32,000 bases of DNA, taken from assembly GCA_965231035.1 (NCBI GenBank), contig OZ246409.1, positions 29,001 to 61,000 of the forward strand. The letters run 5' to 3'. Every line of letters starts with the position of its first letter. The first letter of the stretch is position 1. The notes below the pieces were generated by a model, which had not been told where the DNA came from, searched no databases, and worked only from the letters and a program-made list of their open reading frames with translations. The position numbers were made by a program, and so were the translations under genes. Of the stretch, positions 2,231-26,756 are shown piece by piece. The DNA comes from an uncultured Muribaculaceae bacterium (lineage in GTDB: Bacteria; Pseudomonadota; Alphaproteobacteria; Rs-D84).

Positions 2231-4792
2231 ATGAAAAAAATATTTTTGATTTTTTTAAGTGTTTTTTTATTTTGGACCTCTGATGCGTTTTCCAATCAGG
2301 GGATAAACGTTCAGTATGTTCACAATGCCGTAATGGCAGAGCATAATATTAACATCCCAATAAATGCAGCTGTAAATCCAAATGCGGCTGCAAATATGCA
2401 ATATGTCTTGTACCTTGTTGATTTAGCAAATCAATCATTGAATGGATGGGCTGTAACAAATTATGCATCAACTGCATATGCTACAACAAAATGGGCAGAC
2501 ACAACATCTGCAAACTATGTTTTGAAAAATTTAATAAGAATAGTACCTGTTTTTACAGCAACTACGGTTGCCAGTACAACAAGTTTCAGTTTTTACATAA
2601 GTGCAAAGGGAAATTTTTCAATTAATTGGGGTGATGGGAATACAGATACAATTACAAAAGCAAATACAACAAATACTTCATATTCTCATACATATTCAAC
2701 GGCTGGAACATACCAGGTAAAAATATCTGGATTGGCAACAGGTTATAATACAAGTCCGACCGTATCTGCGATAAGTTTTTCTTCTAATAGTAAACTTGCA
2801 GGAATTAGTGGAAAATTAGGTACTATATTTCCCACAGTTGGAACCGGGGTCGGTAATCAACCGGTTTTTTATAATTTGTTTTCTAATTGCACAAATTTGG
2901 TTGGGTCAATTCCCACAGGGTTATTTGATGGTATAACAGGAACCCCGATTCCATCAATATTTCAAAACACTTTTTATGGGTGCGCTAGGTTAACAGGATC
3001 TATACCTGATGGATTATTTTCTGGTTTAACAGGTGTTCCTGCTGCAAATATGTTTGATGGTACTTTCCGAGGTTGCACTGGATTAACAGGGGCCATTCCA
3101 TCAGTATTGTTTGGCAGCATGTCAGGTGTTCCAGCTTCAAGTATGTTTAATCAAACATTTTATAATTGCAGTGGGTTAACAGGTTCTATACCAAGTGATT
3201 TATTCGCTGGAATGTCGGGTGCACCAGCAGCTAGTATGTTTAATGGGACATTTTGTGGTTGTAACAGTTTAACAGGATCAATAGCTTCTGAATTATTCGC
3301 TGGAATATCGGGTTCCCCAGCAGCAAATATGTTTAATCAAACATTTTATGGTTGTGTTGGATTAACAGGGGCTATTCCATCAGGATTGTTTGGCAGTATA
3401 TCAGGTGCGCCAGCAGCAAACATGTTTTATGGGACATTTTATAGTTGTACCGGTTTAACAGGCACAATACCTTCTGGGTTATTCACTGGAATTTCGGGTA
3501 CTCCTGCAAGTCAGATGTTCTATGCAATTTTTTCAGGTTGTACCGGTTTAACTGGTGCAATACCTTCGGGATTATTTGGAAATATATCTGGTACACCGGC
3601 GCAGTACATGTTTTATAGAACTTTTTATAATTGCAGCAATTTAACTTCTATACCAACCAATTTATTTGGAAATATATCTGGCACGCCAGCTACGGGTATG
3701 TTTCAACAAACATTCAATGGATGTACAGGTTTAACTGGAACAATACCTTCGGGTTTATTTGGAAATATATCTGGTGCACCAGCATCAGGAATGTTTAATT
3801 CAACATTCAGTGGGTGTTCTGGATTGACTGGATCTATTCCAACGGGTTTATTTGGAAGTTTGTCTGGTGCCCCAGCTACCCAAATGTTTGATTATACTTT
3901 TATGAGTTGCAGTGGATTGACTGGATCTATTCCAACAAATTTATTTGGAAGTTTATCTGGTGCCCCAGCCACATATATGTTTGAAGGTACATTCTTGGCA
4001 TGCGGTGGTTTAACAGGAACTATACCCTCAGGATTGTTTGGAAGTTTAACTGGTGCACCAGCAGTAAATATGTTCAGTGGTACTTTTCAGGGTTGTGTTG
4101 GATTAACTGGTGAAATACCATCGGGATTGTTTGGAAGTTTAACTGGTGCACCAGCACAGTACATGTTCAGTGCAACTTTTGGCGGTTGTACCGGTTTGAC
4201 AGGCATACCATCGGGTTTATTTGGAAATATAACTGGGGCACCTGCACAAAGTATGTATTATGGTACATTCAACGGGTGCACCGGTTTAACAAGTTCTATT
4301 CCATCAGGTTTGTTTGGAAATGTAAGCGGGGCAGCGGCTGTTTCAATGTATTATGGAACGTTCAGTGGGTGCACTGGCTTGACAGGATCAATACCCTCAG
4401 GGTTATTTGGAAACATAACGGGCTCTCCGGCTGCAAATATGTTTCGTGATACATTCAGAAATTGTTCAAGCTTAACCGGAACAATACCATCCGGATTATT
4501 TGGCAGCATATCAGGAAGCCCAACTAACTATATGTTTAATTCAACATTTAATGGGTGTAGTGGTTTGACAGAGTTGGGTGGTTTTGAAAACTGTACATTT
4601 ACATCTGGAACTTCAGTTTATTATCCAATTGGTGGAACATTTTATGGATGTACAAGTGCAACTGGGGAATCCCCGTCAGATAAAAATGGAATGAAGTTCT
4701 ATAACTGGGATACATCTACATCATCATTACAAACATTTTATGGTGATACAAATCTATCAGATTACAGTACAATCCCATCAACAAGAAAATAA
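2231..4792 (+). CDS. BspA-family / DUF285-type leucine-rich repeat surface protein (853 aa)
   Basis: Sec signal peptide (MKKIFLIFLSVFLFWTSDAFS). An N-terminal module reads SINWGDGNTDT..YSHTYSTAGTYQVKISG. It is followed by about 18 tandem ~31-aa units with consensus GLTG(S/T)IPSGLFG(N/S)(I/L)SGAPAxxMFxxTFxGC. Confidence 0.8.
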   Translation: MKKIFLIFLSVFLFWTSDAFSNQGINVQYVHNAVMAEHNINIPINAAVNPNAAANMQYVLYLVDLANQSLNGWAVTNYASTAYATTKWADTTSANYVLKNLIRIVPVFTATTVASTTSFSFYISAKGNFSINWGDGNTDTITKANTTNTSYSHTYSTAGTYQVKISGLATGYNTSPTVSAISFSSNSKLAGISGKLGTIFPTVGTGVGNQPVFYNLFSNCTNLVGSIPTGLFDGITGTPIPSIFQNTFYGCARLTGSIPDGLFSGLTGVPAANMFDGTFRGCTGLTGAIPSVLFGSMSGVPASSMFNQTFYNCSGLTGSIPSDLFAGMSGAPAASMFNGTFCGCNSLTGSIASELFAGISGSPAANMFNQTFYGCVGLTGAIPSGLFGSISGAPAANMFYGTFYSCTGLTGTIPSGLFTGISGTPASQMFYAIFSGCTGLTGAIPSGLFGNISGTPAQYMFYRTFYNCSNLTSIPTNLFGNISGTPATGMFQQTFNGCTGLTGTIPSGLFGNISGAPASGMFNSTFSGCSGLTGSIPTGLFGSLSGAPATQMFDYTFMSCSGLTGSIPTNLFGSLSGAPATYMFEGTFLACGGLTGTIPSGLFGSLTGAPAVNMFSGTFQGCVGLTGEIPSGLFGSLTGAPAQYMFSATFGGCTGLTGIPSGLFGNITGAPAQSMYYGTFNGCTGLTSSIPSGLFGNVSGAAAVSMYYGTFSGCTGLTGSIPSGLFGNITGSPAANMFRDTFRNCSSLTGTIPSGLFGSISGSPTNYMFNSTFNGCSGLTELGGFENCTFTSGTSVYYPIGGTFYGCTSATGESPSDKNGMKFYNWDTSTSSLQTFYGDTNLSDYSTIPSTRK
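2860..4570 (+). repeat. Intragenic tandem repeat array, about 18 units of about 93 nt (imperfect)
   Basis: The units ..GGTTTAACAGG..ATACC(T/A)TC(G/A)GG(A/T)TTATTTGGAA..GGTGCACCAGC..ATGTT.. recur periodically, visibly so at both DNA and protein level. Confidence 0.8.
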
Positions 4793-11174: not shown

Positions 11175-11199
11175 AAAAACCGCCAACCGGCGGTTTTTT
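11174..11199. terminator. Bidirectional rho-independent terminator
   Basis: Hairpin AAAAACCGCC-AACC-GGCGGTTTTT between convergent genes. Confidence 0.6.
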
Positions 11200-12235
11200 A
11201 TCGGATAGTTTTTATCATAGAGTTTTGTATAAATACAAATGCCTTAGATGTGTTCGCAATTGGTTTATGAACCAGTTCAATCTTTTTTTTCTTAATAGCA
11301 TCTTTTATAAAATCAGAATAACTTGATAAGTCATATGATTCTGCATAAACGACTCGTTTTACACCAGATTGTAAAATGTTTTTAATACACTCATTGCATG
11401 GTTGTACGGTACAATATATTGTTGATCCTTGTAAGTTGTATCCTCCACCTTCTTTTGATTTAAAAAGTAATGCATTCATTTCAGCATGAATTTCGTTATC
11501 TAAAGAAAATTTATGGTGTTCTTCTCTATTAAAAAGTGGAGAGTTCTTTTTTGGAAATAAATCATCACAATTTTGACAGCCTTCGGGTGTTCCGTTTATG
11601 CCAGTTGATATTATCCTTTTGTTTTTTACTAATAGTGTACCTACTTGACGAGATACACAATGCGATCCACTTGCCATCGCAAAAGCCATAATTAAAAATA
11701 TTTCATCCCAATCTTTTTTATTTGCTGTTTCTAAAGAAAATTCTGAAAAATTATTTCTTTTCTTTGTTCTTTTTATTTTTTTTGCAATGTTGTTATTTAC
11801 AGAATCAACAATATTATTTTCTTTTATATATTGCAATAAACCAATTCGTACTATAACCAAAAAATTTATAATATCATCAACATTTTCTTTACAACGGTTA
11901 ATATTTTTTGCAAGACCTTTAATTAATTGGGCTAAACTGGAACATAATTTATATGTATTAACCCTTATTTTGTTTTTTGATATAACCAGCGAATTTACTT
12001 TTTCTTCTATATTAAAAGAAGTTATAACGTGTTGCATTGTTATAAAAACATCAGCAATTTCAGAAGATATTGCAGATTTATTTTTTCTTGTTTTTAGTAA
12101 CTCGATAATCAATTCGGAGTTTTCTTCTACATTTATGAGATTTTGAAAATTATATCCATTTTTTTCCAAAAGGAAATTTGACAGTTCACGCATAGAATCG
12201 AAATCTATTGAATTTTGAATGTTTAAAATGTTCAT
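11198..12235 (-). CDS. Fusion protein: N-terminal MazG-like all-alpha NTP pyrophosphohydrolase-like domain plus C-terminal dCMP (deoxycytidylate) deaminase
   Basis: The C-terminal half has the zinc motifs HAEMNAL and PCNECIKNI, with SRQVGTLLV..ISTGINGTP, as in dCMP deaminase/ComEB. The N-terminal ~170 aa contains EENSEL, 15 intervening residues, then SEIADVF, which fits the MazG ExxE..ExxD pattern. The N-terminal assignment is tentative. Confidence 0.75.
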   Translation of the reverse strand: MNILNIQNSIDFDSMRELSNFLLEKNGYNFQNLINVEENSELIIELLKTRKNKSAISSEIADVFITMQHVITSFNIEEKVNSLVISKNKIRVNTYKLCSSLAQLIKGLAKNINRCKENVDDIINFLVIVRIGLLQYIKENNIVDSVNNNIAKKIKRTKKRNNFSEFSLETANKKDWDEIFLIMAFAMASGSHCVSRQVGTLLVKNKRIISTGINGTPEGCQNCDDLFPKKNSPLFNREEHHKFSLDNEIHAEMNALLFKSKEGGGYNLQGSTIYCTVQPCNECIKNILQSGVKRVVYAESYDLSSYSDFIKDAIKKKKIELVHKPIANTSKAFVFIQNSMIKTIR

Positions 12236-13259: not shown

Positions 13260-14801
13260 TTGAACACTTCTGATTTTGATTTTGAACTGCCAGAAAATTT
13301 AATCGCGTCGCATCCACTGGAACGGCGCGATGCTTCGCGTATGCTGGTTTTGCCAAAAAATGAAGACAAGCATATTCGTGATTTTTTGGATTATTTACAA
13401 CCTGGCGATGTAGTTGTTTTTAATAACAGCAAGGTTATTCCTGCAAGATTTGATGCGTCTGGATATGAAATTACATTGCATACCCATATTTCTGATAATA
13501 CTTGGTGGGGATTTGCCAAAAAATTTAACAAACTGCAAATTGGTGAAAAATTAAAATTAACCGACGGTACAGAAATAGAAGTTGTTGATAAAAACGATGA
13601 ATCTGGCTTAGCTGTGAAGTTTTTATGCAATGATGTTTTGTCTGTTCTGGATCGTGTTGGAAAAATGCCATTACCACCGTACATGAAGCGTCCAGACGAA
13701 GAATCTGACCGTGACCGTTATCAAACTGTTTATGCAAACCCGGTTGGCTCTATGGCGGCACCGACTGCCGGGTTGCACTTTACGAATGAAATGCTAAGTG
13801 AAATTGAAAAACGCGGTGCTAAGATTGTAAAGATAACTTTGCACGTTGGCGCTGGTACTTGGATGCCTGTTAAAACCGAAGATTTATCCAAACACAAAAT
13901 GCACAGTGAATGGGGGCAAATCACCACCGAACAAGCATCAATTATAAATTCTGCAAAACGTGTTATCGCTGTTGGTACAACATCTTTGCGATTACTGGAA
14001 AGTGCCGCAGCTTGTCTTATCCCTAGCGAGTGTGAAGTATTACCAGAATGTCAACGATTGGGTATGTCTCCCCCCCCAGAGGGGGGAGTGTCGCCAAAAT
14101 GGCGACAAGGGGGGGAAAATAGAAAATACTCAAATCGTGCTTTATCCGCCGCAAAATCCTTGCGACAAAGTATGACAATGTATGAATGTCTGTTGTGGAA
14201 AAAATTACGCAAATCACCGAATGGATTTGCTTTTCGCAAGCAACATCCAGTTGGAAAATACATTGTTGATTTTATAAACTTGGATAAAAAATTAATCATT
14301 GAATTGGATGGTGCATTGCACGGGGAAGAAAGACAAATAATTCATGACGCGATACGGGATAAGTTTTTACAAGATTTAGGTTTCAGAATTATCAGATTTT
14401 GGAACAACGAAGTGTTTAAAAAAATGGATATGGTTTTAGATACAATTTATCATTATCTGACTCACGATGATGTTCCGGATTTGGTTGCCCCCCCTCGGCT
14501 AACTTCGTCAGCCACTCCCCCCTCTCGGGGGGGAGACATCTTCCTCTTGGGGGTGAGACAAAAACCTCGCGTTCAACCATTTTGTGCAACCACTGATATT
14601 TTTATAACCCCAGGTTATAAGTTCCAGGTGGTTGATGTTTTGCTGACCAATTTTCATCTTCCTAAATCTACATTGTTTATGTTAGTTTGTGCATTTGCAG
14701 GAACGGACGAAATGAAATCGGCATACGCACACGCAGTGGCCGAAAAGTACCGCTTTTTCAGTTATGGTGATTGCTGTTTATTATTTAATAAAAAGGATTA
14801 A
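13260..14801 (+). CDS. queA: S-adenosylmethionine:tRNA ribosyltransferase-isomerase QueA carrying an in-frame insertion of about 180 aa
   Basis: TTG start. N-terminal NTSDFDFELPENLIASHP, then MPLPPYM, YQTVYA, APTAGLHFT, VIAVGTTS.R.LES, and after the insert IFITPGY.F.VVD.LLTNFHLPKSTL.MLV.AFAG and YRFFSYGD. The ORF is 513 aa, against the usual 340-360 aa. Confidence 0.9.
   Translation: MNTSDFDFELPENLIASHPLERRDASRMLVLPKNEDKHIRDFLDYLQPGDVVVFNNSKVIPARFDASGYEITLHTHISDNTWWGFAKKFNKLQIGEKLKLTDGTEIEVVDKNDESGLAVKFLCNDVLSVLDRVGKMPLPPYMKRPDEESDRDRYQTVYANPVGSMAAPTAGLHFTNEMLSEIEKRGAKIVKITLHVGAGTWMPVKTEDLSKHKMHSEWGQITTEQASIINSAKRVIAVGTTSLRLLESAAACLIPSECEVLPECQRLGMSPPPEGGVSPKWRQGGENRKYSNRALSAAKSLRQSMTMYECLLWKKLRKSPNGFAFRKQHPVGKYIVDFINLDKKLIIELDGALHGEERQIIHDAIRDKFLQDLGFRIIRFWNNEVFKKMDMVLDTIYHYLTHDDVPDLVAPPRLTSSATPPSRGGDIFLLGVRQKPRVQPFCATTDIFITPGYKFQVVDVLLTNFHLPKSTLFMLVCAFAGTDEMKSAYAHAVAEKYRFFSYGDCCLLFNKKD
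14066..14090. repeat. Left G/C-rich palindromic inverted repeat of the queA insert
   Basis: GTCTCCCCCCCCAGAGGGGGGAGTG. It is self-complementary and is the reverse complement of 14513-14537 apart from one base. Confidence 0.85.
14513..14537. repeat. Right G/C-rich palindromic inverted repeat of the queA insert
   Basis: CACTCCCCCCTCTCGGGGGGGAGAC. Its reverse complement, GTCTCCCCCCCGAGAGGGGGGAGTG, matches the left copy at 24 of 25 positions. Confidence 0.85.
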
Positions 14802-18761: not shown

Positions 18762-18786
18762 AAAAACCGCCAATTGGCGGTTTTTT
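18762..18786. terminator. Bidirectional rho-independent terminator
   Basis: Hairpin AAAAACCGCC-AATT-GGCGGTTTTTT between convergent genes. Confidence 0.6.
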
Positions 18787-21145
18787 AAGCATATTGTTTT
18801 TGTAAGTTTGAAATATATTTTTCAATAGTCGCATTCAGATTACGATTACCATCTTCCTCTAAAACACTTTTTATTTCATGCTCTGTCCATCCAGCGTACC
18901 ACATCATTGGTATAAGTCCCATGTTTAATAAGTTATGTCTGTTACCATCATGCCAATCAATCAATAACCATTTTACTTTTTCTATTAATTTCAGATTTGG
19001 TCCTGTGTGATTTGCAAAAGAAGCTCTGAAAGCGGCTAATTCTTCTTCGCGTTGTTTTTGTTTTTGTAGATATTCTTGATATGCAGGACGCCAATCAATA
19101 TCTAAAATATTATTTGTTTGATGTACTAATTTTTGCAATTTATTTGTATCTGGTCTTACAATATCTGGGCGTCTGGTTGCTCTTCCGTTATTACTGCAAG
19201 AGAAATCCAGAATATTTGATGTATAAATAAATTCTTTCTTTTTAGTATCATATTTTTTCGATACCAGATTATATTTTTCTGCCAGATAGAAAAACAACCA
19301 TCTGTATTCCGATTTATTATTTGGAACATCTTTTATTGTGCATCTCATATGCAAAGATTTATTTCCAGAAAATACAATACGATTTATAACATTCAATGAT
19401 ACCAAGTGTTTAGCTAAGTTGACTTGGTCTTCCAAAGACAAATGATCCATTTCATAAAGAAAACTGCAAAAACCAAAATTTGCATCCGCAGGCGAAGGTT
19501 CTCCAGACTTGCTTAATAATGGCGGGTTTGGTACTAGCGGATTAATGGATTCAAATTCGCCGACTTTGGAATAATATCTTTTACCTGTATCAGTTGCTGC
19601 AAATGGAATTCCACGTGGAATAATAATGCTGGTTTCTGGCATAATTTCAAAATCGGGCAGGCTATGTTTATTCAGGTTTACAGGTTTTATCTCATATGTT
19701 TGTTCAATGTTTGATGAATTGTCTGATTTGTTTTCATTAAACAAATCCAGGCTTAATTGTTTTGAAAATAAATTTCCGGAACTAAGTTGAATATTCAAGA
19801 ATTCTGGAATATCAATACCATAAAGATTCATATTTTCTGAAGTAATTTTTTGTTTTAGTTCTTTTATTTTATCTGCACATTCAGGTGCAGTTTTCTTTTT
19901 AGTGGATATATCATGATAGATATTTATTAGATTATTTTCATATGATTTTTTAACTTCCATTACCCATATTTCATCATTGGAAAATAAGTGTTGATCGCGA
20001 TAAAAAGATATCCCTTCTGTATCACGGAATTTTATACCCCAATTATCAATATGACTGCGACCATTTCCTTTTTCTATACTATTAATGTTTTCAAAAGAAA
20101 CTGATTGATGATATTCTGAAAACAAGGATTTTTTGTTAAATAAAGAATCAATATTTTTGTCGGCTCGCTTTGATAATTCTAACTGATATCTGGTTTGAAT
20201 AAAAAATTTTGCAGCCAACGCATCTAATTTATTTGAACCTACAAATGTTGCATCTTCTTTTATTGATTTGTATATATAATCACAAAATTTATCAATTTGT
20301 TCACTTAAAAAAATCATTATGTGTGGTGCAATATAAGGAATTGGTGAGTTTGTTTTTGAATTTTTGATAACTTGTTTATAAATTTTTTCAAACGATTGTA
20401 GTTCATTAGGTTTATAAGCAGTTGCAAATAAAGTGTCAAAAATATGATTATGTAATAAATCTCTTACTTCAAAATAAAAAACTCTACCATTGAAGAGTTT
20501 TATTAAATTTCCTATACGAGCCTGAAAAATATCCGAAATTGTTTTTAGTTTTTCGCCGCGTATAAAATCCCATGTAGGTTGAATTAAATCGGATAGTTCG
20601 CAATCAGCAAATGCAAAATATGATCGAGCAAAAGCCATTTTTTCATAAGTAAAACCGTTTGAATCCCGTATAATTTTATTAGCAGCAGTACTTATCATCA
20701 AATATGCGCTGTATCTGGATAACCAAATGTTATCAAATCCATGATCGAAATATTTATATTTATGATGTATGTGTCGTTCTGGAATTTTGCATTCTGTTAT
20801 AAGAAATTTTAAATCTTTTCTGGACGGTGAAATTTTGTTGTTAGTGATTATTTCCATCAAATCATAAAAATTCCAACAATCGTTTTTATTAATGGTTCCT
20901 TTGGAGGCGTTTAATTTTTCAAAGATATTTTTAAATAATGAATTTGATTGTTCTTCATCGGTATAGAATTTAAACACAGGGCTGAATTCAATTGGTTTTG
21001 TATCACAGGGAATTCCAAAAAGTTCATTTATAATGGAATATATTTTTGCAGTTGTTTCAGATTTAAGTTTTCGCGCTTTGACCATACGCACGTGGGCGGT
21101 GTCCAATGTACCTGAAAAATTATCAGAATATAAATCTTGCGACAT
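18785..21145 (-). CDS. Large orphan protein (786 aa) with a C-terminal archaeo-eukaryotic-primase-like (AEP) domain, a PriCT-like domain, and an N-terminal DinD/Bro-like motif
   Basis: Start taken at MSQDLY (21145), because a TTGACA-N16-TAAAAT promoter lies inside the longer ORF. AEP-like motifs are FLYEMDH (I), VFSGNKSLHMRC (II) and ILDFSCSNNGRATRRPD (III). The PriCT-like segment is WHDGNRHNLLNMGLIPMMWYAGWTEHEIKSVLEE. The N-terminal LSRYSAYLMIS...FARSYFAF resembles DinD. All of these assignments are tentative. Confidence 0.5.
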   Translation of the reverse strand: MSQDLYSDNFSGTLDTAHVRMVKARKLKSETTAKIYSIINELFGIPCDTKPIEFSPVFKFYTDEEQSNSLFKNIFEKLNASKGTINKNDCWNFYDLMEIITNNKISPSRKDLKFLITECKIPERHIHHKYKYFDHGFDNIWLSRYSAYLMISTAANKIIRDSNGFTYEKMAFARSYFAFADCELSDLIQPTWDFIRGEKLKTISDIFQARIGNLIKLFNGRVFYFEVRDLLHNHIFDTLFATAYKPNELQSFEKIYKQVIKNSKTNSPIPYIAPHIMIFLSEQIDKFCDYIYKSIKEDATFVGSNKLDALAAKFFIQTRYQLELSKRADKNIDSLFNKKSLFSEYHQSVSFENINSIEKGNGRSHIDNWGIKFRDTEGISFYRDQHLFSNDEIWVMEVKKSYENNLINIYHDISTKKKTAPECADKIKELKQKITSENMNLYGIDIPEFLNIQLSSGNLFSKQLSLDLFNENKSDNSSNIEQTYEIKPVNLNKHSLPDFEIMPETSIIIPRGIPFAATDTGKRYYSKVGEFESINPLVPNPPLLSKSGEPSPADANFGFCSFLYEMDHLSLEDQVNLAKHLVSLNVINRIVFSGNKSLHMRCTIKDVPNNKSEYRWLFFYLAEKYNLVSKKYDTKKKEFIYTSNILDFSCSNNGRATRRPDIVRPDTNKLQKLVHQTNNILDIDWRPAYQEYLQKQKQREEELAAFRASFANHTGPNLKLIEKVKWLLIDWHDGNRHNLLNMGLIPMMWYAGWTEHEIKSVLEEDGNRNLNATIEKYISNLQKQYA

Positions 21146-21153
21146 AATTGAAA

Positions 21154-21181
21154 ATTTTATACTAAAATAAGTTGTTGTCAA
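21154..21181 (-). promoter_or_regulatory. Sigma70-like promoter directly upstream of the 786-aa ORF
   Basis: On the minus strand: TTGACA (21181-21176), a 16-nt spacer, then TAAAAT (21159-21154), with only 8 nt before the ATG at 21145. Confidence 0.4.
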
Positions 21182-21257
21182 TAAAATACAAATAAAAATC
21201 TCGAAAAATAAAAAAACTTGCAAAGTTAAAAAGAATATGTAAAAATCCCCTGGCTGT

Positions 21258-21334
21258 GCGAGCGTAGCTCAGTTGGCTAGAGCGCAACCTTGCCAAGGTT
21301 GAGGTCGAGGGTTCGAGCCCCTTTGCTCGCACCA
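21258..21334 (+). tRNA. tRNA-Gly (anticodon GCC)
   Basis: 77-nt cloverleaf: GCGAGCG/TGCTCGC acceptor stem, GCTC-AGTTGGCTA-GAGC D arm, CAACC-TTGCCAA-GGTTG anticodon arm, GAGGG-TTCGAGC-CCCTT T arm and an encoded CCA. Confidence 0.9.
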
Positions 21335-21414
21335 GAATTTTAAATGGTGCATAAAATTGTTAAACCTGATAAAATCTTATAATTAAAGTGTGCGACCATC
21401 GGTAAAAATTACGA

Positions 21415-21440
21415 CGGGCGCACTTTTGCGCCCGTTTTTT
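21415..21440 (+). terminator. Rho-independent terminator downstream of tRNA-Gly
   Basis: 8-bp stem CGGGCGCA-CTTT-TGCGCCCG followed by T6. Confidence 0.6.
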
Positions 21441-21458: not shown

Positions 21459-22928
21459 ATGGCATTAAATCCGCAACGTGAAGCTTATATCGAAAGGTTG
21501 AATAAGCTGGAAGAACTGGGTGTGGTGGCTTACCCACATATTTACACACCAAAAAATACAGCGGCCGAATTGCAAGAAAAATACAAAGATTTGGGCAATG
21601 ATGTTGTTTTGAATGATGTTGCAAATGTTGCTGGTCGTATTATGGCTTATCGTAATGGTGGTATGTTCATTGTTATAAAGGATGCCAGCGGTAAAATACA
21701 ACTTTTGTGCAACAAGGGTGATTTTGATGAAAAACAGCAAGCTGTTCTGAAATTGTTGCGTCCGGGTGATTGGATTGGTGCAACTGGCACAATTCGCCGT
21801 ACAGCAGCAGGCGAACTGACAGTTGCTGTTTCTGGGGATATAACGGTCTTGGCGAAAACTTTATTGCCATTGCCAGAAAAATATCATGGTTTGACCGATA
21901 CCGAAGCCCGATATCGTCAGCGTTATTTGGATATGATTATGTCCGATGAATCACGCGAAACATTGATTAAAAGATTTGAAATTGAACAAGAAATCCGCAA
22001 ATTTATGATTGAACGTGGATTTTTAGAGGTTGAAACACCAATTCTGCAAGAATCCAAGGGCGGGGCAACAGCGAAACCTTTTATTACACATCATAATTCC
22101 TTGGAACGCGACTTGTTTATGCGTGTTGCACCAGAATTGTTTTTGAAAAGATTAATTGTAGGCGGTTTGCCACGTGTTTTTGAAATTGGAAAAATGTTCC
22201 GTAACGAAGGAACCGATACCAGACACAATCCTGAATTCACTATGATGGAAGCCTATCAACAATTCGCAGATTACAACGATATGATGAATTTGGTTGAACA
22301 ACTGGTCGAAAGGGTATGCTTGAAATTCAACGGTACAACCAAAATGCAATTTGGTGACAAGATTGTCGATGTTAAAACACCTTGGAAACGTGCAGGTATG
22401 TTAGATTTGATAAAAGAAAAGACAGGTGTTGATTTCTTGGAAATTGCCGATGCTAAATCTGCACACAAGGCTGCTGAAAAACTGGAAGTTCATGTTGAAA
22501 AAAATGCAACTTGGGGCGAAGTAGTCGAAGAAGTATTTAATGAAAAAGTCGAAGAATCTCTGGAAGGTCCAATTCATGTTACAGACTATCCGGTGGAAGT
22601 TTCGCCACTGACAAAAACACATCGTTCAAATTCACGTTTGGTTGAAAGGTTTGAAACCAGAATCTTTGGAATGGAATTATGCAATGCGTACAGTGAATTA
22701 ACTGATCCGCGTGATCAACGTTCACGCCTGGAAGCCCAAGCGGCAAAACGTGCAGGCGGCGATGACGAAGCAGATATGATGGACGAAGATTTTATTACTG
22801 CACTGGAATACGGAATGCCACCAACGGGTGGAATTGGAATCGGAATTGACAGACTGGTGATGATGGTTTTGAACAAAGAATCAATTCGTGATGTTATTGC
22901 TTTCCCAATTTTGAAAGAAAAGAAATAA
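21459..22928 (+). CDS. lysS: Lysyl-tRNA synthetase, class II
   Basis: Start MALNPQREAYIERL, preceded by AAAGGAAA. Class II motifs are FLEVETPIL, FRNEG.D..HNPEFT..E.Y and GG.GIGIDRLVM. Confidence 0.95.
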   Translation: MALNPQREAYIERLNKLEELGVVAYPHIYTPKNTAAELQEKYKDLGNDVVLNDVANVAGRIMAYRNGGMFIVIKDASGKIQLLCNKGDFDEKQQAVLKLLRPGDWIGATGTIRRTAAGELTVAVSGDITVLAKTLLPLPEKYHGLTDTEARYRQRYLDMIMSDESRETLIKRFEIEQEIRKFMIERGFLEVETPILQESKGGATAKPFITHHNSLERDLFMRVAPELFLKRLIVGGLPRVFEIGKMFRNEGTDTRHNPEFTMMEAYQQFADYNDMMNLVEQLVERVCLKFNGTTKMQFGDKIVDVKTPWKRAGMLDLIKEKTGVDFLEIADAKSAHKAAEKLEVHVEKNATWGEVVEEVFNEKVEESLEGPIHVTDYPVEVSPLTKTHRSNSRLVERFETRIFGMELCNAYSELTDPRDQRSRLEAQAAKRAGGDDEADMMDEDFITALEYGMPPTGGIGIGIDRLVMMVLNKESIRDVIAFPILKEKK

Positions 22929-22933
22929 TAAAA

Positions 22934-24331
22934 ATGAAAAATCAAATACTCGAAAATAACGTGGAAGTTATCACGGCTGATAACGACCGAAAAAATCTTG
23001 CTGCGATTGATAGTGCGGAACAACAAGGTCGGATTAATTCCGAGGCTGCGGAATATTTGAAAACTCTTTATTCAAATGGAATGGATCGTTTTCGAGAAGT
23101 TTTCCATGTTTTGGGAAAATGTTTTGGTGCGCCAAAAGCTGCTGTGATGCCTTATGATTATAAGACAAGTGCCATCATAGATAAACCAATGAAGATTTCG
23201 GATATTAACCCGCTGTCTGCCTATATGGTATATCACCGTTTGGATAATGATCCAATGCGAAATCAATTCTTTTCAATCGTAGATAGTCACCACGTAGATT
23301 TGTATGTTTCGTCAATAGTTAGTGTAATTGTTGGGGCACAAAAAAATATTGATCGTGCTTTGGAAAAAATTACAGGAAAATATTATCAGGCCTATGTTCA
23401 AGAAGTTGCCACTGCTGCAAAGCGTGTGATTGTTGCAAATGGCTTGGACGGAGCAGGCGATAAAATTGCTGAAAAAATTCAAACGAAGTTTTTTGAAAAA
23501 TATATCACAAATGCATCTGAAACTGTGCTGGGGATGTTGGAATCAGGATATGAAAAAATCGCAGTAGAATTGGTTCGTGAATTAGATAAAATTGAAAAAC
23601 CACATCTGCGATTAAAAGACGTTTGGCGTGTAAAGTGCTTGTTTGATTTAATCCCCCAAGTTCGAGTTTTCTTGGAAAGAATTTATGAAATGGCACCAGA
23701 AAAGATAATAACTATTCGTGACAGGTTTTACGATACTAAAAATCCAAGAAATTACCGTGACGCAAAGTTAATTTTGAATATTGGTAAAGACGGAAAGGTT
23801 ATTCCTGTGGAAATAATCTGCCAGGTCAGAACCTTGTTTGAATTTGATAGAAGAAATCATGAAGATTATAAAAATTCTCGCGAGGGAGAAAACCTAAACA
23901 AAGAAGATATTGAAAAAGAAATGTCTGAATTTATGGAAAATGGCATAAAAGAATACAATAAAATGGTATGTCATTGTCTGGGCGAAATCTTTGATAGAGT
24001 TGGTTGGAACATTTTATATAATCGTGAAAGCGGTGCTTCTATGTTTGACGGGTTCCCCAGATTTTCAAAACAATATTACCCAGCCAAGGTTGTTGATACA
24101 ATTTCAAACAAATTAGACAGTGCAGTCGAAAATGAAATTTTTCATGTCGAAAATGCTCCACGAAAACTTAGCAAAACCGAAGAAATTGAAATATTCCGTT
24201 GGATGGCAAAGTTTATATTAATTTCCGCCATGCCATACATGAATGGAAATTGGGAAATTAAAAAGACTGATGTTTCAGGAAAATTATTTAACTTTGTAAT
24301 GAAAGAACTTCACAGGTACTATAAAAAATAA
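22934..24331 (+). CDS. Divergent RelA/SpoT-like (RSH) nucleotidyltransferase-fold protein (465 aa), function unknown
   Basis: The central segment LKDVWRVKCLFDLIPQVRVFLERIYEM..IRDRFYDTKNPRNYRDAKLILNIG...IPVEIICQVRTLFEFDRRNHEDYK parallels the RelA_SpoT synthetase pattern (D.xGxR.., GY.s.H.., E.Q.RT.....H..YK). Starts 5 nt after the lysS stop. Confidence 0.5.
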   Translation: MKNQILENNVEVITADNDRKNLAAIDSAEQQGRINSEAAEYLKTLYSNGMDRFREVFHVLGKCFGAPKAAVMPYDYKTSAIIDKPMKISDINPLSAYMVYHRLDNDPMRNQFFSIVDSHHVDLYVSSIVSVIVGAQKNIDRALEKITGKYYQAYVQEVATAAKRVIVANGLDGAGDKIAEKIQTKFFEKYITNASETVLGMLESGYEKIAVELVRELDKIEKPHLRLKDVWRVKCLFDLIPQVRVFLERIYEMAPEKIITIRDRFYDTKNPRNYRDAKLILNIGKDGKVIPVEIICQVRTLFEFDRRNHEDYKNSREGENLNKEDIEKEMSEFMENGIKEYNKMVCHCLGEIFDRVGWNILYNRESGASMFDGFPRFSKQYYPAKVVDTISNKLDSAVENEIFHVENAPRKLSKTEEIEIFRWMAKFILISAMPYMNGNWEIKKTDVSGKLFNFVMKELHRYYKK

Positions 24332-24458
24332 AAACCCTGTTAAACTTGACTTTTGGGCAAAAACGTTGTACTTTCTGGGCTGCAGTCGCTTATTATTACG
24401 ACAATCTCATATAAATTAGTAATTTTTAACCACATTGTGGTAACTGGGGGTTTTGCGG

Positions 24459-26228
24459 ATGAAAAATTTGCCAAAAAATCTTAAAAAGTTCCTTTGGAAG
24501 TACGGATTTAAACCTTACAGGATGGTTGTTTCCTTGTGGGTTGTTATTTCTATTATTTATGGCTTTTTTAACGGGGTTTTGACTCCGCTTCTGAACAAAT
24601 GGTTTGTTGCGTTGTTTGAAAAATCACTGCCTGCTGGCACAGATTTTGTTTCTTTTGCGATTCCAACAATAATTACAATAACAGCTATACTTATAACCCA
24701 GACCATCTTGGGTACTTTGCGTAATGTGACATTCGCCCATTGGACGCCCAAGGTCAGGAACAATATGTCCCAGGCAATGACAGACTATGTAAATGGTCAA
24801 TCTATGCGTTTTTATATCAAAAGAATGCCTGGAAAGATAAATTCTCAGATAAACTATGTGGTCAACAGCTTTAACGTCGTTGACGATATGATAAAGATAT
24901 TCGTTATCGTACTGGTTGTATTATTTAATATCGGTATGATATTAAATATCGATAAATGGGTTGCGATACTTTTGGGTGTGGCGTTTTTGTTGCGTTTTAT
25001 GTATGGGGTTTCCAGAATAAGGCCTATGAATGTAGCGTCCAAGGTTGCCTCGGAGTCTTCATCTGTTTTGTCAGGTAAAATTGTGGACAGCATATCTAAT
25101 TTTTCCATAGTAAAACTGTTTTCTGGTTCAAAAATAGAGAAAAGCTATATGGAACCTGTTCGCACCAAGGTTATAAGGGATTCTATACATTCCAGCTTTA
25201 TGCAGCGCTTATTCTGGGTTCCACAAGTGTTTTTGTGGGATATTATGTTTGGAATCACGATGTTTTTATGTGCCAAGTTGTATATGTCAGGGCATATAAA
25301 GGTTTCTGAAATCGTGTTCACTGTTTCTATTTATACGACTGTTATGGAATACATAGATGGAATGGTCGAGCAAATTCCGAATTTGGTTGATGTTAAGGCT
25401 TCAGCGCAACAGGCATACGAAGAACTGATAGAGCCTATCGAGATTCGTGATTCTCATAATGCCACAGATTTACATATTAAAAAAGGTGTCATAGAAATAA
25501 GGAATGTTTCATTCAGTTATGGCAAAAGAAAGGTTTTAGACGATTTATCACTGATAATAAAGCCTGGTGAAAAAGTTGGTATTGTAGGGTCGTCAGGTGC
25601 CGGTAAAACGACCATAGTTAATCTGTTGATGCGTTTTTATGACCCTTCCAGAGGTGCTATATTTATCGATGGGCAAAACATAAAAAAGGTAAAACAGGAC
25701 TCTTTAAGGAATAATATAACATTTATCCCCCAAGAACCATCATTGTTTAACAGAACTCTGTTTGAAAATATTGCCTATGGCAAGCACAATGCTACATTGA
25801 AAGAGGTTCGTTGTGCTGCAAAACAGGCCATAGCAGACGATTTTATAATGAAGACATCTAAAAAATACGAAAGTATGGTCGGTGATCGTGGCACCAGGTT
25901 ATCTGGCGGGCAAAGGCAACGTGTTGTTATTGCCAGGGCTTTCTTGAAAAATGCGCCAATTTTGATGTTGGACGAAGCAACCAGTGCGCTGGACTCTGAA
26001 ACCGAGGCCGTTATCCAAAAATCCTTTGAAGAATTGTCCAAAGGTCGCACAACAATAGCAATTGCACACCGACTGTCTACATTGCGTAACATGGATAGAA
26101 TTATCGTTCTGGACAAGGGTAAAATAGCAGAAAGCGGCAAGCATAGTTCTTTGATTAAAAAGAGAAAGGGGATATATGCAAAGTTGTGGAAAATGCAAAG
26201 CGGTGGATTTATAAAAGAAAAACAGTAA
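24459..26228 (+). CDS. ABC transporter, fused permease/ATPase (MsbA-like exporter family)
   Basis: Six-transmembrane N-terminal half. Walker A GSSGAGKTT, signature LSGGQRQR, Walker B ILMLDEATSALD and H-loop IAHRL. The ATG at 24459 follows GGGGG by 8 nt. Confidence 0.9.
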   Translation: MKNLPKNLKKFLWKYGFKPYRMVVSLWVVISIIYGFFNGVLTPLLNKWFVALFEKSLPAGTDFVSFAIPTIITITAILITQTILGTLRNVTFAHWTPKVRNNMSQAMTDYVNGQSMRFYIKRMPGKINSQINYVVNSFNVVDDMIKIFVIVLVVLFNIGMILNIDKWVAILLGVAFLLRFMYGVSRIRPMNVASKVASESSSVLSGKIVDSISNFSIVKLFSGSKIEKSYMEPVRTKVIRDSIHSSFMQRLFWVPQVFLWDIMFGITMFLCAKLYMSGHIKVSEIVFTVSIYTTVMEYIDGMVEQIPNLVDVKASAQQAYEELIEPIEIRDSHNATDLHIKKGVIEIRNVSFSYGKRKVLDDLSLIIKPGEKVGIVGSSGAGKTTIVNLLMRFYDPSRGAIFIDGQNIKKVKQDSLRNNITFIPQEPSLFNRTLFENIAYGKHNATLKEVRCAAKQAIADDFIMKTSKKYESMVGDRGTRLSGGQRQRVVIARAFLKNAPILMLDEATSALDSETEAVIQKSFEELSKGRTTIAIAHRLSTLRNMDRIIVLDKGKIAESGKHSSLIKKRKGIYAKLWKMQSGGFIKEKQ

Positions 26229-26372: not shown

Positions 26373-26729
26373 ATGCGTCAAGGTAAAGTGAAGTGGTACA
26401 ACGGTAAAAAGTGTTTCGGATTTATTACTCCGGATTCTGCCAATGAAACCGGAAACAAAGAGGATGTATTTGTTCATTCCAGCTCATTAAAAGCTGCTGA
26501 TATCAGATTCTTGAACGAAAACGACATCGTAGAATTTGAAGAAGAAGTTCGTAATGGCAAATTGTCTGTCACAACATTGAAATTGATCAAACGTGACGAG
26601 GAATCTGCAAAGAAATTCCAAGAACGTCGTTCTGAATTTCATGGAAATCGCGGTGATCGTAACAATGATCGTGGCGACAGACGTGAAGATCGTGGCGAAC
26701 GTCGCGGTTTTGCTTTCTGGAAAAAGTAA
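26373..26729 (+). CDS. Cold-shock domain protein with a charged Arg/Asp/Gly-rich C-terminal tail
   Basis: CSD with RNP1-like KCFGFI and RNP2-like VFVHS. The tail reads HGNRGDRNNDRGDRREDRGERRGFAFWKK. Confidence 0.85.
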   Translation: MRQGKVKWYNGKKCFGFITPDSANETGNKEDVFVHSSSLKAADIRFLNENDIVEFEEEVRNGKLSVTTLKLIKRDEESAKKFQERRSEFHGNRGDRNNDRGDRREDRGERRGFAFWKK

Positions 26730-26730
26730 T

Positions 26731-26756
26731 AAAATCCCGCGTCTGCGGGATTTTTA
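26731..26756 (+). terminator. Rho-independent terminator
   Basis: Hairpin AAAATCCCGC-GTCT-GCGGGATTTTT. Confidence 0.6.

Follow-up and report, generated by a model that had tools for sequence, protein, structure and literature searches.

An RSH-like synthetase domain in a conserved protein encoded directly behind lysS in the alphaproteobacterial order Rs-D84

The lysS–X locus and its distribution

The window, i.e. the whole stretch of DNA analysed here, comprises 32,000 nucleotides from a genome of the order Rs-D84. It contains the gene of a 465-aa protein, termed X in the following, which belongs to an unannotated family resembling the RelA/SpoT homologues (RSH), which synthesise bacterial alarm nucleotides, and lies immediately behind the gene for lysyl-tRNA synthetase. 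The features of the locus and the parts of X, with positions counted in the window, are:

21258–21334, + strand: tRNA-Gly(GCC) with encoded CCA (ARAGORN and Rfam)
21413–21436, + strand: terminator-like hairpin (10 bp, 7 GC) and a T run, behind tRNA-Gly and ahead of the lysS start
21459–22928, + strand: lysS, class II lysyl-tRNA synthetase, upstream operon partner of X (PF00152, PF01336, TIGR00499 with 586 bits)
22929–22933, + strand: lysS–X spacer of 5 nt, without terminator
22934–24331, + strand: X, 465 aa, ATG start, stop codon included (ORF list)
22934–23305, + strand: X residues 1–124, family-specific N-terminal domain of three helices and short strands
23306–23377, + strand: X residues 125–148, RSH strand β1 and basic helix, G134-x-x-K137-x3-R141-x3-K145
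23378–23587, + strand: X residues 149–218, helical insertion with four helices (model secondary structure)
23588–23893, + strand: X residues 219–320, RSH catalytic core (Foldseek, HMM, hhalign register, conservation)
23894–24328, + strand: X residues 321–465, a 40-residue helix (323–362) followed by a family-specific helical domain (model secondary structure)
24453–26228: ABC exporter gene, between X and the cold-shock-domain gene
26373–26729, + strand: cold-shock-domain gene, csp (PF00313)
26731–26754: terminator after the cold-shock-domain gene (terminator scan)

The reading frame of X had been reported in a preliminary description of this DNA, and the ORF list contains it exactly so, with 465 aa from an ATG at 22934 and a distance of 5 nt from the lysS stop codon (TAA, 22926–22928), as claimed. 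For lysS itself the mechanical ORF start is a GTG at 21390, and the likely start is the ATG at 21459, which is accompanied by an AAGGAAA ribosome-binding site. The terminator scan gave no + strand terminator between lysS and X, the Rfam scan of the window returned two tRNAs only, with no riboswitch or leader, and no phage genes were found around X.

The label of an orphan, initially given to X, proved wrong, as searches returned 616 homologues at E ≤ 1e-3, and the family occurs in the genomes of 229 species belonging to Rs-D84 (Candidatus Enterousia and its relatives). The best 120 of the 616 homologues are 57–76% identical to X and about 465 aa long, and the mean pairwise identity of the orthologues is 70%. 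Among the related loci, collected with the close-clade alignment A1, lysS lies directly upstream of X in 85 of 86, with a median gap of 16 nt and a spacing of 5–28 nt in 79 of the 85; the linkage to lysS, for which a survey had been suggested, is thus almost universal. The pairing is kept even where lysS has been swapped for a version only 39% identical, as in the window and at locus L009. The usual immediate neighbour downstream is csp (74 loci), which in the window is displaced from its place beside X by the ABC exporter gene. Genomes of Rs-D84 are smaller than 1 Mb and have discarded most of their metabolism (PMC12306168). X is a core, vertically inherited gene of this reduced-genome order of gut Alphaproteobacteria, and literature searches on Enterousia, Rs-D84 and remote RSH homologues turned up no description of it.

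The tRNA gene upstream had been put forward as functional context for X. Of 46 loci scanned, 32 have a tRNA-Gly(GCC) gene on the lysS strand no more than ~6.5 kb ahead of X, and in 22 of these 32 it directly precedes lysS, indicating a synteny that is less tightly conserved than the lysS–X pair. Because the hairpin at 21413–21436 separates tRNA-Gly from the lysS start, the tRNA is probably not part of the lysS transcript. We therefore rejected it as functional context: tRNA-Gly is an ancestral neighbour outside the functional unit, and ancestral synteny insulated by a terminator provides no evidence for a tRNA-related function of X.

Sequence and structural evidence for an RSH synthetase domain

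Two sister subfamilies of the X family, type 2 (P0161-like, 456–510 aa) and type 3 (P0156-like, ~600 aa, with a Sel1-repeat gene following), come from MAGs of uncultured gut Alphaproteobacteria. They share with X the three-part architecture and six invariant residues, and differ from it in sequence (20–25% identity), in a canonical E-I-Q-x-K on strand β5, in a shorter insertion (alignment A3) and in having no linkage to lysS. Neither X by itself nor its close homologues gave a significant match in Pfam, NCBIfam, PADLOC, PHROG or PDB sequences (phmmer, A1 profile). The search against PF04607 that had been proposed as a check gave no match to X even at E ≤ 10, nor to any of 38 close homologues. 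Profiles of the close clade alone (A1) or of type 2 alone (A5) gave weak RSH signals, with an hhalign probability of 5% and HMM E-values of ~0.08, and the signal was significant only when the subfamilies were merged (alignments A4 and A6). When the three-subfamily profile was run against 177,635 PDB sequences, the sole matches at E ≤ 10 were RelP (E = 3e-4) and RelQ (E = 0.03). Alignment of the family profile to RSH with hhalign gave P = 1.6e-4 over 109 columns at a probability of at most 50%, the profiles being shallow, and reproduced the register of the preliminary description. In the reverse direction, an HMM built from five RSH sequences was run on 4,528 ORFs and retrieved a family member and nothing else (E = 7e-4). 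PF04607 is also the Pfam family most often matched by members of the wider family (12 of 53, all below threshold, best E = 4.2e-4); weak matches to Mu-like_Pro, Toprim, AbiEii and nitrogenase were dropped as inconsistent between members. Sequence homology to known RSH proteins is accordingly supported at the level of the family profile, but not with X on its own. An RSH HMM found no canonical RSH gene near X in 95 loci and the window, the search covering these loci only.

RSH synthetases are built on a mixed five-stranded sheet. The AlphaFold model of X (pLDDT 80.7, pTM 0.77) has strands at residues 128–136, 231–237, 258–263, 276–282 and 291–298 and helices at 139–147, 240–253, 299–317 and 323–362, and thereby runs through the full RSH order of β1, basic helix, β2, α, β3, loop, β4, β5, α and long α. 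Helix 323–362 corresponds in the model to the long helix with which small alarmone synthetases end. In a Foldseek search of the PDB with this model, ranks 1–47 are all RSH synthetases (RelQ, RelP, CapRel, FaRel2 and exported SAS), with probabilities of 0.6–1.0 (≥0.9 for 45 of them); the E-values of 1e-3 to 0.3 are modest and TM-scores do not exceed 0.48. Nucleotidyltransferase-fold proteins outside RSH (NF90/NF45, Utp22, TUT4, FAM46, Pol mu) rank below all RSH entries in the Foldseek lists. Among viral structures (BFVD), the best match is a 'RelA/SpoT family protein' of Sinorhizobium phage phiN3 (A0A0F6WCQ2, E = 2.2e-4), from which X differs in being chromosomal and core and in having no PHROG match. 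An independent model of a sister-subfamily protein (21% identity, pLDDT 88.6) again matches RSH proteins, namely CapRel, RelP, Tas1, Rel and RelA. The global TM of the X and sister-subfamily models against CapRel is 0.20–0.26.

The synthetase domain of long RSH proteins (Rel, RelA, SpoT) is homologous to that of X; the sister-subfamily model matches Rel Mtb (5xnx) and RelA (5iqr), and the H-x-x-Y spacing of X is identical to that of the RelA H-W-K-Y motif. Unlike them, X contains no HD hydrolase, TGS, ZFD or ACT/RRM domain according to Pfam, which confirms what had been said of HD, TGS and ACT, and residues 321–465 contain no Pfam domain of any kind.

The resemblance of X to RSH could in principle be a coincidence of motifs in a fold of another kind, since X alone reaches an hhalign probability of just 5% and has no HMM match. 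Four independent approaches, however, agree on the family and the register, and the hhalign register, the PDB-profile matches and the two AlphaFold models together place the resemblance beyond chance; we consider a coincidence extremely improbable. The middle part of X (~125–320) is truly homologous to the RSH synthetase domain, although very far diverged from it. The order of RSH-like motifs first read from the sequence is thereby borne out, while several of its details needed correction. The peptide quoted at that time corresponds to residues 227–313, its spacers measure 7 residues from ...YEM to IRD, where 9 had been counted, and 5 residues from NIG to IPVE, where 7 had been counted, and the domain does not start at ~225 but at ~125, with the strand and basic helix of residues 125–148 followed by the ~70-residue insertion (149–218). 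This leaves an N-terminal flank of ~124 aa instead of ~220 aa.

Active-site residues and flanking domains

Six residues, K137, R141, K145, D229, R232 and E293, are invariant over 53 sequences of the three subfamilies (~20% identity), and by alignment all six lie in or beside the RSH ATP/Mg site. In 85 orthologues these six and Y274, D276, K278, Q297, R299 and H309 are 100% conserved; the lysine of 'YK', previously counted as part of a conserved block, is E in 81 of the 85. The hhalign register places X 125–147 on RelQ 36–59 and equates K137 with K48, K145 with K56, D229 with D72, Y274 with Y116, K278 with H120 and E293 with E139. D229 is aligned by both hhalign and HMMER with the catalytic Mg-binding Asp on β2 (RelQ D72, FaRel2 D90), and Y274, the G-loop Tyr, is aligned with RelQ Y116 and the RelP Tyr and is at least 90% conserved across the subfamilies. 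In FaRel2, the corresponding residues K66, S70, K74, D90, E145 and Y128 serve the donor triphosphate, Mg, adenine and acceptor base, with K66, S70 and K74 binding the triphosphate of ATP (PMC11782079). Judged from its sequence, the segment X 125–148 with its basic helix is predicted to bind the triphosphate in the donor ATP site. A loss of catalytic residues, which would have spoken for a dead fold, is not seen in the sequence alignments, as the catalytic Asp, the Glu and the G-loop Tyr are retained.

The surroundings of these residues are remodelled. The arginines that sandwich the donor adenine (FaRel2 R64 and R95, RelQ R46 and R77) are A135 and K234 in X. Compared with the donor motif R-x-K-x3-S-x3-K-x2-R, K137 and K145 are kept, whereas A135 takes the place of the first Arg, R141 that of the Ser and G148, with K149 adjacent, that of the last Arg. 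On β2, the Arg at D+5 is K234, and the invariant R232 stands at D+3. Strand β5 reads E293-I-I-C-Q297-V-R299-T, with Q, R and T shifted by two relative to E-x-Q-x-R-T; the Gln of E-x-Q is an Ile in the Rs-D84 clade and is kept in types 2 and 3. The G-loop, N-P-R-N-Y-R-D-A-K (N270..Y274-R-D276-x-K278), is without the canonical K-x-x-G-Y-x-S-x-H; the alteration of the GY..H block noticed earlier is real, with K278 at the position of RelQ H120. The core after β5 continues with an α helix carrying H309..Y312. With the adenine-stacking arginines lost and the Gln of E-x-Q replaced by Ile, ATP may bind differently in X, or the chemistry may differ.

These substitutions allow two further readings. X could be a catalytically dead pseudo-enzyme acting as a scaffold or nucleotide sensor, in line with the replacement of several canonical RSH residues and the lack of any curated HMM match. 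The sole residues invariant over three subfamilies, however, are those of the predicted ATP/Mg site, a pattern typical of active enzymes, and we regard a dead enzyme as improbable. Alternatively, the RSH-like scaffold with its remodelled donor site could serve another reaction, for instance AMPylation, the transfer of a nucleotidyl group, or the phosphorylation of a protein or small molecule. The loss of the adenine-stacking arginines together with the new invariant arginines R141 and R232 is consistent with this, as are the lower-ranking Foldseek matches to NF90/NF45, Utp22, TUT4, FAM46 and Pol mu and one weak match to AbiEii (E = 0.09). Yet those non-RSH matches have probabilities of 0.1–0.6 against ~1.0 for RSH, AbiEii is matched by 1 of the 53 family members against 12 for PF04607, and the alignments contain no hG[GS]...DxD motif but a single conserved Asp on β2 (D229-V-W-R), as in RSH. 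Another reaction is unlikely in our estimate.

Classical pol-beta-type nucleotidyltransferases (including AbiEii/MenT) have an hG[GS] loop and a D-x-D/E carboxylate pair on β2 with a third carboxylate; X does not fit this group, given the absent G[GS] motif, the one Asp and the ranking of such structures below RSH. Two further candidates were rejected. A replacement for the CCA-adding enzyme is contradicted by the CCA encoded in the tRNA-Gly gene itself and by the missing DxD motif, and for a link to lysidine synthesis no PP-loop motif was seen; both readings were set aside because all structural evidence points to RSH.

Of the regions flanking the core, the N-terminal domain (1–124) is the one best conserved between subfamilies. 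Distant relatives match mostly profile positions 5–100, and over the three subfamilies conservation reaches at least 90% at I25, I34, L42, P67 and Y97, as it does at Y341 and N342 in the C-terminal part. The Foldseek lists gave no structural match beyond RSH for this domain. The insertion (149–218), which contains a Y151-x-x-Y154 string, is absent from RelQ, where 16 residues take its place, and is gapped in hhalign. X has a near-neutral pI of 7.2, compared with 6.6 for RelQ, and no signal peptide.

The closest known counterparts in fold and order of elements are RelP/SAS2 (YwaC) and RelQ/SAS1 (YjbM) of Firmicutes (PDB 6fgk, 6ewz, 5ded). They share with X the Mg-binding Asp, the β5 Glu, two lysines of the basic helix, the G-loop Tyr and the H-x-x-Y motif, and they too are cytoplasmic proteins of near-neutral pI, housekeeping rather than toxic, as X appears to be. 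Identity to X is only ~15%, and X escapes detection by PF04607. X further differs in its 465-aa length, to which an N-terminal domain of 124 aa, an insertion of 70 aa and a C-terminal domain of 100 aa contribute, in the replaced adenine-stacking Arg, in the Ile for the Gln of E-x-Q, in its G-loop (K-x-S-G-Y-R-S-Y-H in RelP/RelQ) and in the operon with lysS.

Candidate reactions and biological role

Toxic SAS modules are bicistronic, often as overlapping operons with a small antitoxin gene, and occur in patchy, variable or mobile contexts, and CapRel carries a C-terminal pseudo-zinc-finger antitoxin domain whose YXXY motif blocks the donor site. The preliminary description had implied an analogy of X to such toxins and fused sensors. 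Indeed, CapRel (7ztb, 9erv) and FaRel2 (8pu1) are among the best structural matches of X and of the sister subfamily, and toxSAS proteins, like X, combine the RSH core with extra N- or C-terminal elements, so that X could be a toxic SAS or a CapRel-type fused toxin–antitoxin or phage-defence sensor. Unlike these proteins, X has no antitoxin gene and no pseudo-ZFD: no small gene adjoins it in the 86 loci, where its neighbours are lysS and csp or the ABC exporter, and its 145 C-terminal residues are modelled as all-helical, not zinc-finger-like. It has no PADLOC match, lies outside defence islands and occupies one syntenic site throughout 229 species of an order with genomes below 1 Mb, in place of a sporadic or mobile distribution. 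The absence of an antitoxin and of a defence context indicates that X is a housekeeping gene and not a toxin, and we consider a toxin or sensor very improbable.

The same structural matches raise the question of a different acceptor. X could be a tRNA 3′-CCA pyrophosphokinase with the chemistry of CapRel, FaRel2 and PhRel2, a housekeeping enzyme that slows aminoacylation in a regulated way, possibly with tRNA-Lys as its target or in concert with LysRS. The nearly universal lysS–X operon, its survival of the lysS swap and a G-loop unlike that of GDP/GTP-specific enzymes are in keeping with such a role. Unregulated tRNA pyrophosphorylation is toxic, however, and the enzymes known to perform it depend on an antitoxin or on a fused pseudo-ZFD (PMC11782079), neither of which was found at X. 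The near-neutral pI of X also argues against this role, the sister subfamilies adjoin no aaRS gene, and synteny within a single order can be inherited rather than functional. We regard a tRNA pyrophosphokinase as quite unlikely.

The explanation that we prefer, and that we judge evenly poised between right and wrong as a whole, is that X is an active RSH-type pyrophosphokinase with an altered donor/acceptor site, a housekeeping enzyme co-expressed with lysS. The analysis demonstrates the homology and the fold of X, the conservation of its active-site residues, its phyletic distribution and the structure of its operon; we infer catalytic activity, transfer of a pyrophosphoryl rather than a nucleotidyl group, the nature of the acceptor and a physiological role. 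X would be a cytoplasmic enzyme co-transcribed with lysS. Mg-ATP would place its triphosphate against the basic helix (K137, R141, K145), the metal being held by D229 on β2, and E293 on β5 would complete the site. The acceptor base would stack on Y274 of the remodelled G-loop, and the β,γ-pyrophosphate would move to the ribose 3′-OH. The acceptor would most likely be a free purine nucleotide, giving rise to an alarmone-type signal, and X would act as a housekeeping regulator of growth and translation that is produced along with LysRS. Control of the enzyme would fall to its N-terminal domain, to the insertion of 70 residues and to the helical domain at its C-terminus.

RSH enzymes are central switches of bacterial growth control and have more recently also been recognised to act as toxins and to sense phages. 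They were catalogued by means of sequence HMMs (PMC7229694). The X family escapes the Pfam RelA_SpoT model, yet keeps the catalytic residues. Tentatively, X and its two sister subfamilies could form a previously unrecognised deep RSH branch outside the HMM-defined SAS, SAH and long-RSH groups, with a remodelled donor/acceptor site. In partner-dependent bacteria with very small genomes, it would serve as an essential pyrophosphokinase with a housekeeping role and a functional link to LysRS. Taken in full, this proposal is somewhat unlikely; if true, X might, for example, produce an alarmone of a non-canonical kind or cap tRNA-Lys in a reversible manner, and it might be the sole stringent-type control of Rs-D84 organisms. 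The family would extend the range of sequences and active sites known among pyrophosphokinases. Since X is kept in genomes of less than 1 Mb and stays attached to lysS even after lysS itself was exchanged, it is likely important, offering a testable entry to the regulation of translation or growth in partner-dependent bacteria.

Gene X and its genomic surroundings

The open reading frame directly after lysS is real, starts with ATG and encodes the 465-aa protein X, and the 5-nt spacing between the two genes, reported in the preliminary description, is correct. The relevant features of the region are:

21258–21334: tRNA-Gly(GCC), CCA encoded
21413–21436: strong, bidirectional terminator-like hairpin (10 bp, then a T run), between tRNA-Gly and the likely lysS start
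21459–22928, + strand: lysS, class II lysyl-tRNA synthetase (PF00152 and PF01336; TIGR00499, 586 bits), upstream of X, ending in TAA
22934–24331, + strand: X, ATG start, 465 aa

Because the hairpin falls inside the mechanically called, GTG-initiated lysS reading frame, the true start is likely ATG 21459, with the sequence AAGGAAA in front of it. With the hairpin lying between it and this start, tRNA-Gly is probably a transcript separate from lysS; a terminator scan of the window found no terminator between lysS and X.

A survey of the lysS linkage, as had been suggested, placed lysS immediately before X, in the same orientation, in 85 of the 86 close loci; in the one remaining locus the gap is 669 nt. 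The median spacer is 16 nt, and 79 of the 85 spacers measure 5–28 nt. A cold-shock-domain gene (csp) directly follows X in 74 loci, and an MsbA/HlyB-like ABC exporter gene (24453–26228, + strand) lies between X and csp only in the window and in loci L013 and L080. A short remnant of the inserted exporter is present in L009. tRNA-Gly(GCC) is found upstream of lysS in most loci and is absent there in some. The LysRS of the window is 37–43% identical to LysRS of 84 other Rs-D84 loci and 88% identical to that of L009, and both LysRS types score as true class II enzymes, suggesting that lysS was swapped in situ for a foreign version in the window/L009 sub-lineage and that the tight lysS–X junction was kept through the replacement. 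Across the same Rs-D84 loci, TGT, CSD and X are far more similar than LysRS; the GC content is 40% for the window lysS, 35% for X and 36% for the whole window. The conservation of the lysS operon, which appears to have outlasted the lysS replacement, speaks for X acting on tRNA, possibly tied to tRNA-Lys or LysRS, a serious rival to the free-nucleotide acceptor considered below.

X was initially described as an orphan, which does not hold, as 616 homologues match it at E ≤ 1e-3; the best 120 of them are all ~465 aa long, 57–76% identical to X, unnamed and without a Pfam domain. When a single genome was scanned for each GTDB species, 229 species carried the gene; their records, metagenome-assembled genomes (MAGs) from the gut of animals and humans, are titled Candidatus Enterousia, Alphaproteobacteria bacterium or Rickettsiales bacterium. 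Enterousia is a member of the uncultured order Rs-D84. Most of its genomes are <1 Mb; they have no TCA cycle or respiration and miss several steps of glycolysis, and the organism is thought to depend on a partner (PMC12306168). Only 54 clusters came up when 1.84 billion representative proteins were searched exhaustively with a profile. By this measure the X family is narrow, yet it is well populated inside its lineage. Mean pairwise identity is 70% for X (83 orthologues) compared with 80% for the adjacent LysRS. We found no published description of X in the literature on Enterousia, Rs-D84 or RelA/SpoT homologue (RSH) remote homologues.

X lies among genes of ordinary housekeeping type (era, queA, tgt, murJ, bamD and peptidases), no small partner gene adjoins it, and it matched nothing in PADLOC or PHROGs. 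A toxin–antitoxin or defence role is unlikely given the missing partner, the lack of a PADLOC match and the housekeeping neighbours.

Several other genes of the window are unusual in their own right. queA (13260–14801, + strand) encodes 513 aa, as against the usual ~343 aa and the 343 aa of its L003 orthologue; residues 295–400 match PF04480 (E = 1e-32), an endonuclease domain of the DUF559/Vsr-like type, which lies inside the QueA fold and splits the QueA Pfam match in two. In this tRNA-modification enzyme it may represent either an inserted domain or an insertion resembling a homing endonuclease. An 812-aa open reading frame adjoining tRNA-Gly (18785–21223, − strand) has no match in Pfam, NCBIfam, PADLOC or PHROGs; relatives occupy the same place in L005 and L010 (both 42% identity) and in L013 and L080 (26–28%), and most other loci lack them. 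A 345-aa protein (11198–12235, − strand) carries a C-terminal dCMP/ComEB-type deaminase domain behind an N-terminal extension of ~170 aa and scores 100 bits, below the cut-off of 400, against the NCBIfam 'anti-phage dCTP deaminase' model. Finally, an 853-aa protein (2231–4792, + strand) matches the CPR pilus protein PamR weakly over a short stretch (NF058578, E = 2e-7), and its 165-aa neighbour (1723–2220, + strand) has a weak match to a baseplate-protein N-terminus; the two may function at the cell surface or in attachment, in a bacterium that depends on a partner.

Homology to RSH synthetases

X had been proposed to contain a divergent RSH-like domain, on the basis of a peptide that we find at residues 227–313, with two spacers of 7 and 5 residues that had been counted as 9 and 7. 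X alone has no PF04607 match even at E ≤ 10, let alone at the gathering score, and no match in NCBIfam; searches of PDB sequences with X (phmmer) and with the close-clade profile likewise returned nothing. Two sister subfamilies, 20–25% identical to X, were found by a representative search and two follow-up searches: type 2, typified by P0161 (36 proteins, 456–510 aa), and type 3, typified by P0156 (19 proteins, ~600 aa). Members with a source name likewise come from gut Alphaproteobacteria MAGs. With this wider family, PF04607 became the Pfam family most often matched: 12 of the 53 aligned members hit it, the best at E = 4.2e-4, and none of them reached the threshold. At type-3 loci (P0156, P0168; L008, L092–L094), a gene for a Sel1-repeat protein (375–384 aa) begins 6–20 nt after the RSH-like gene; the pairing occurs in two different contig families and may be a conserved two-gene unit.

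The AlphaFold model of X (38-sequence alignment, pLDDT 80.7, pTM 0.77) has the RSH order of elements: strand 128–136, helix 139–147, strand 231–237, helix 240–253, strand 258–263, a loop, strands 276–282 and 291–298, helices 299–317 and a long helix 323–362. In a Foldseek search of the PDB, ranks 1–47 were all RSH synthetases, including the three suggested for comparison, RelQ (5ded/5f2v/5dec), FaRel2 (8pu1/8pu3) and CapRel (7ztb), as well as RelP (6ewz/6fgk/6fgx), 2be3, 3l9d and an exported small alarmone synthetase (SAS; 8vx3), with E values of 1e-3 to 0.3, probabilities of 0.6–1.0 (at least 0.9 for 45 of 47) and a target-normalised TM of 0.48 at most; Pol mu came next, at probability 0.25. 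In a viral structure library, Sinorhizobium phage phiN3 supplied the best match (E = 2.2e-4), a 'RelA/SpoT family protein', and several further RelA/SpoT-named proteins came after it. An independent model of P0161 (pLDDT 88.6, pTM 0.86) matched CapRel, RelP, Tas1, Rel (M. tuberculosis, S. aureus, B. subtilis), RelA and the exported SAS, with generic nucleotidyltransferase-fold proteins at lower probability.

Profile comparisons pointed the same way. Among 177,635 distinct PDB sequences, the merged-family profile matched only SAS at E ≤ 10 (RelP/YwaC, 2.7e-4 to 3.1e-4; RelQ/YjbM, 0.03). For hhalign, the target was a small alignment built from RelQ, RelA and Rel sequences confirmed identical to PDB entries. 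The motif register of the preliminary description came back as a single match, which improved from P = 7e-3 when only the close clade was used to P = 1.6e-4 (probability 50%, 109 columns) for the merged family; with the merged family the match also spans the N-terminal strand and basic helix. Reciprocally, a five-sequence RSH HMM matched only the type-3 protein (E = 7e-4) among 4,528 ORFs of the fetched loci. Taken singly, the Foldseek E values and hhalign probabilities are modest, and it is their agreement, together with the pattern of conservation, that carries the case; with structure, distant relatives, profiles and reciprocity, four separate lines, agreeing with each other, a chance resemblance is unlikely, and by sequence and model residues ~125–320 of X are homologous to the RSH synthetase domain, as had been proposed. 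The domain is preceded by a family-specific N-terminal domain (residues 1–124), the part best conserved between subfamilies, interrupted by a helical insertion of ~70 residues (149–218) and followed, after the long helix 323–362, by a helical C-terminal domain. Pfam finds no HD, TGS or ACT domain in X, as claimed, and no signal peptide was found.

Predicted active site and placement

Only six positions are invariant across 53 sequences of the three subfamilies (K137, R141, K145, D229, R232 and E293), with Y274, H309 and Y312 at least 90% conserved; all of these, together with D276, K278, Q297 and R299, are 100% conserved in 85 Rs-D84 orthologues. In the FaRel2 donor site, R64, K66, S70, K74 and R77 bind the triphosphate and D90 Mg, R95, E145 and Q147 are adenine residues, and Y128 is the acceptor-base residue (PMC11782079); RelQ has the same spacing.

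Correspondence of active-site residues, read from the hhalign and HMMER registers
FaRel2 R64, RelQ R46: X A135, Arg lost
FaRel2 K66, RelQ K48: X K137, invariant
FaRel2 S70, RelQ S52: X R141, invariant
FaRel2 K74, RelQ K56: X K145, invariant
FaRel2 R77, RelQ R59: X G148, adjoined by K149
FaRel2 D90, RelQ D72: X D229, invariant
FaRel2 R95, RelQ R77: X K234, invariant R232 two residues before
FaRel2 E145, RelQ E139: X E293, invariant
FaRel2 Q147, RelQ Q141: X I295, Gln in types 2 and 3 (E-I-Q-x-K)
FaRel2 Y128, RelQ Y116: X Y274, at least 90% conserved

By this alignment, X retains the elements for metal and triphosphate as well as the acceptor Tyr. Invariance is limited to the predicted catalytic pocket, a pattern that favours an active enzyme and makes a pseudo-enzyme unlikely. 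The two adenine-stacking arginines are not conserved, and the canonical G-loop signature K-x-x-G-Y-x-S-x-H is replaced by N-P-R-N-Y-R-D-A-K, which argues for altered substrate handling; with its donor site remodelled in this way, X may perform a different chemistry on the same scaffold. Directly after the basic donor-site helix, residues 149–154 (23378–23395) read K-Y-Y-x-x-Y, with Y150 and Y151 invariant and residue 154 Y or F in X orthologues, resembling the YXXY motif by which the antitoxin domains of CapRel and ATfaRel2 block the ATP site (PMC11782079).

The published HMM-based census of RSH proteins comprises 30 SAS, 11 small alarmone hydrolase and 13 long-RSH subfamilies (PMC7229694). 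Because X falls short of the PF04607 gathering score and does not show two donor-site features in their usual form at the homologous positions, we file it, on sequence and model, outside any named subfamily, as a branch of the RSH fold that is new and deeply divergent. RelP and RelQ are the systems that X would work most like. The best-supported reading is that X is an active housekeeping RSH-type pyrophosphokinase, predicted to be co-expressed with LysRS. Its acceptor would most likely be a free nucleotide, giving an alarmone-type product, since X is encoded by a single core gene with no antitoxin, carries a charge close to neutral (pI ~7.2; RelQ, 6.6) and is structurally closest to non-toxic SAS.
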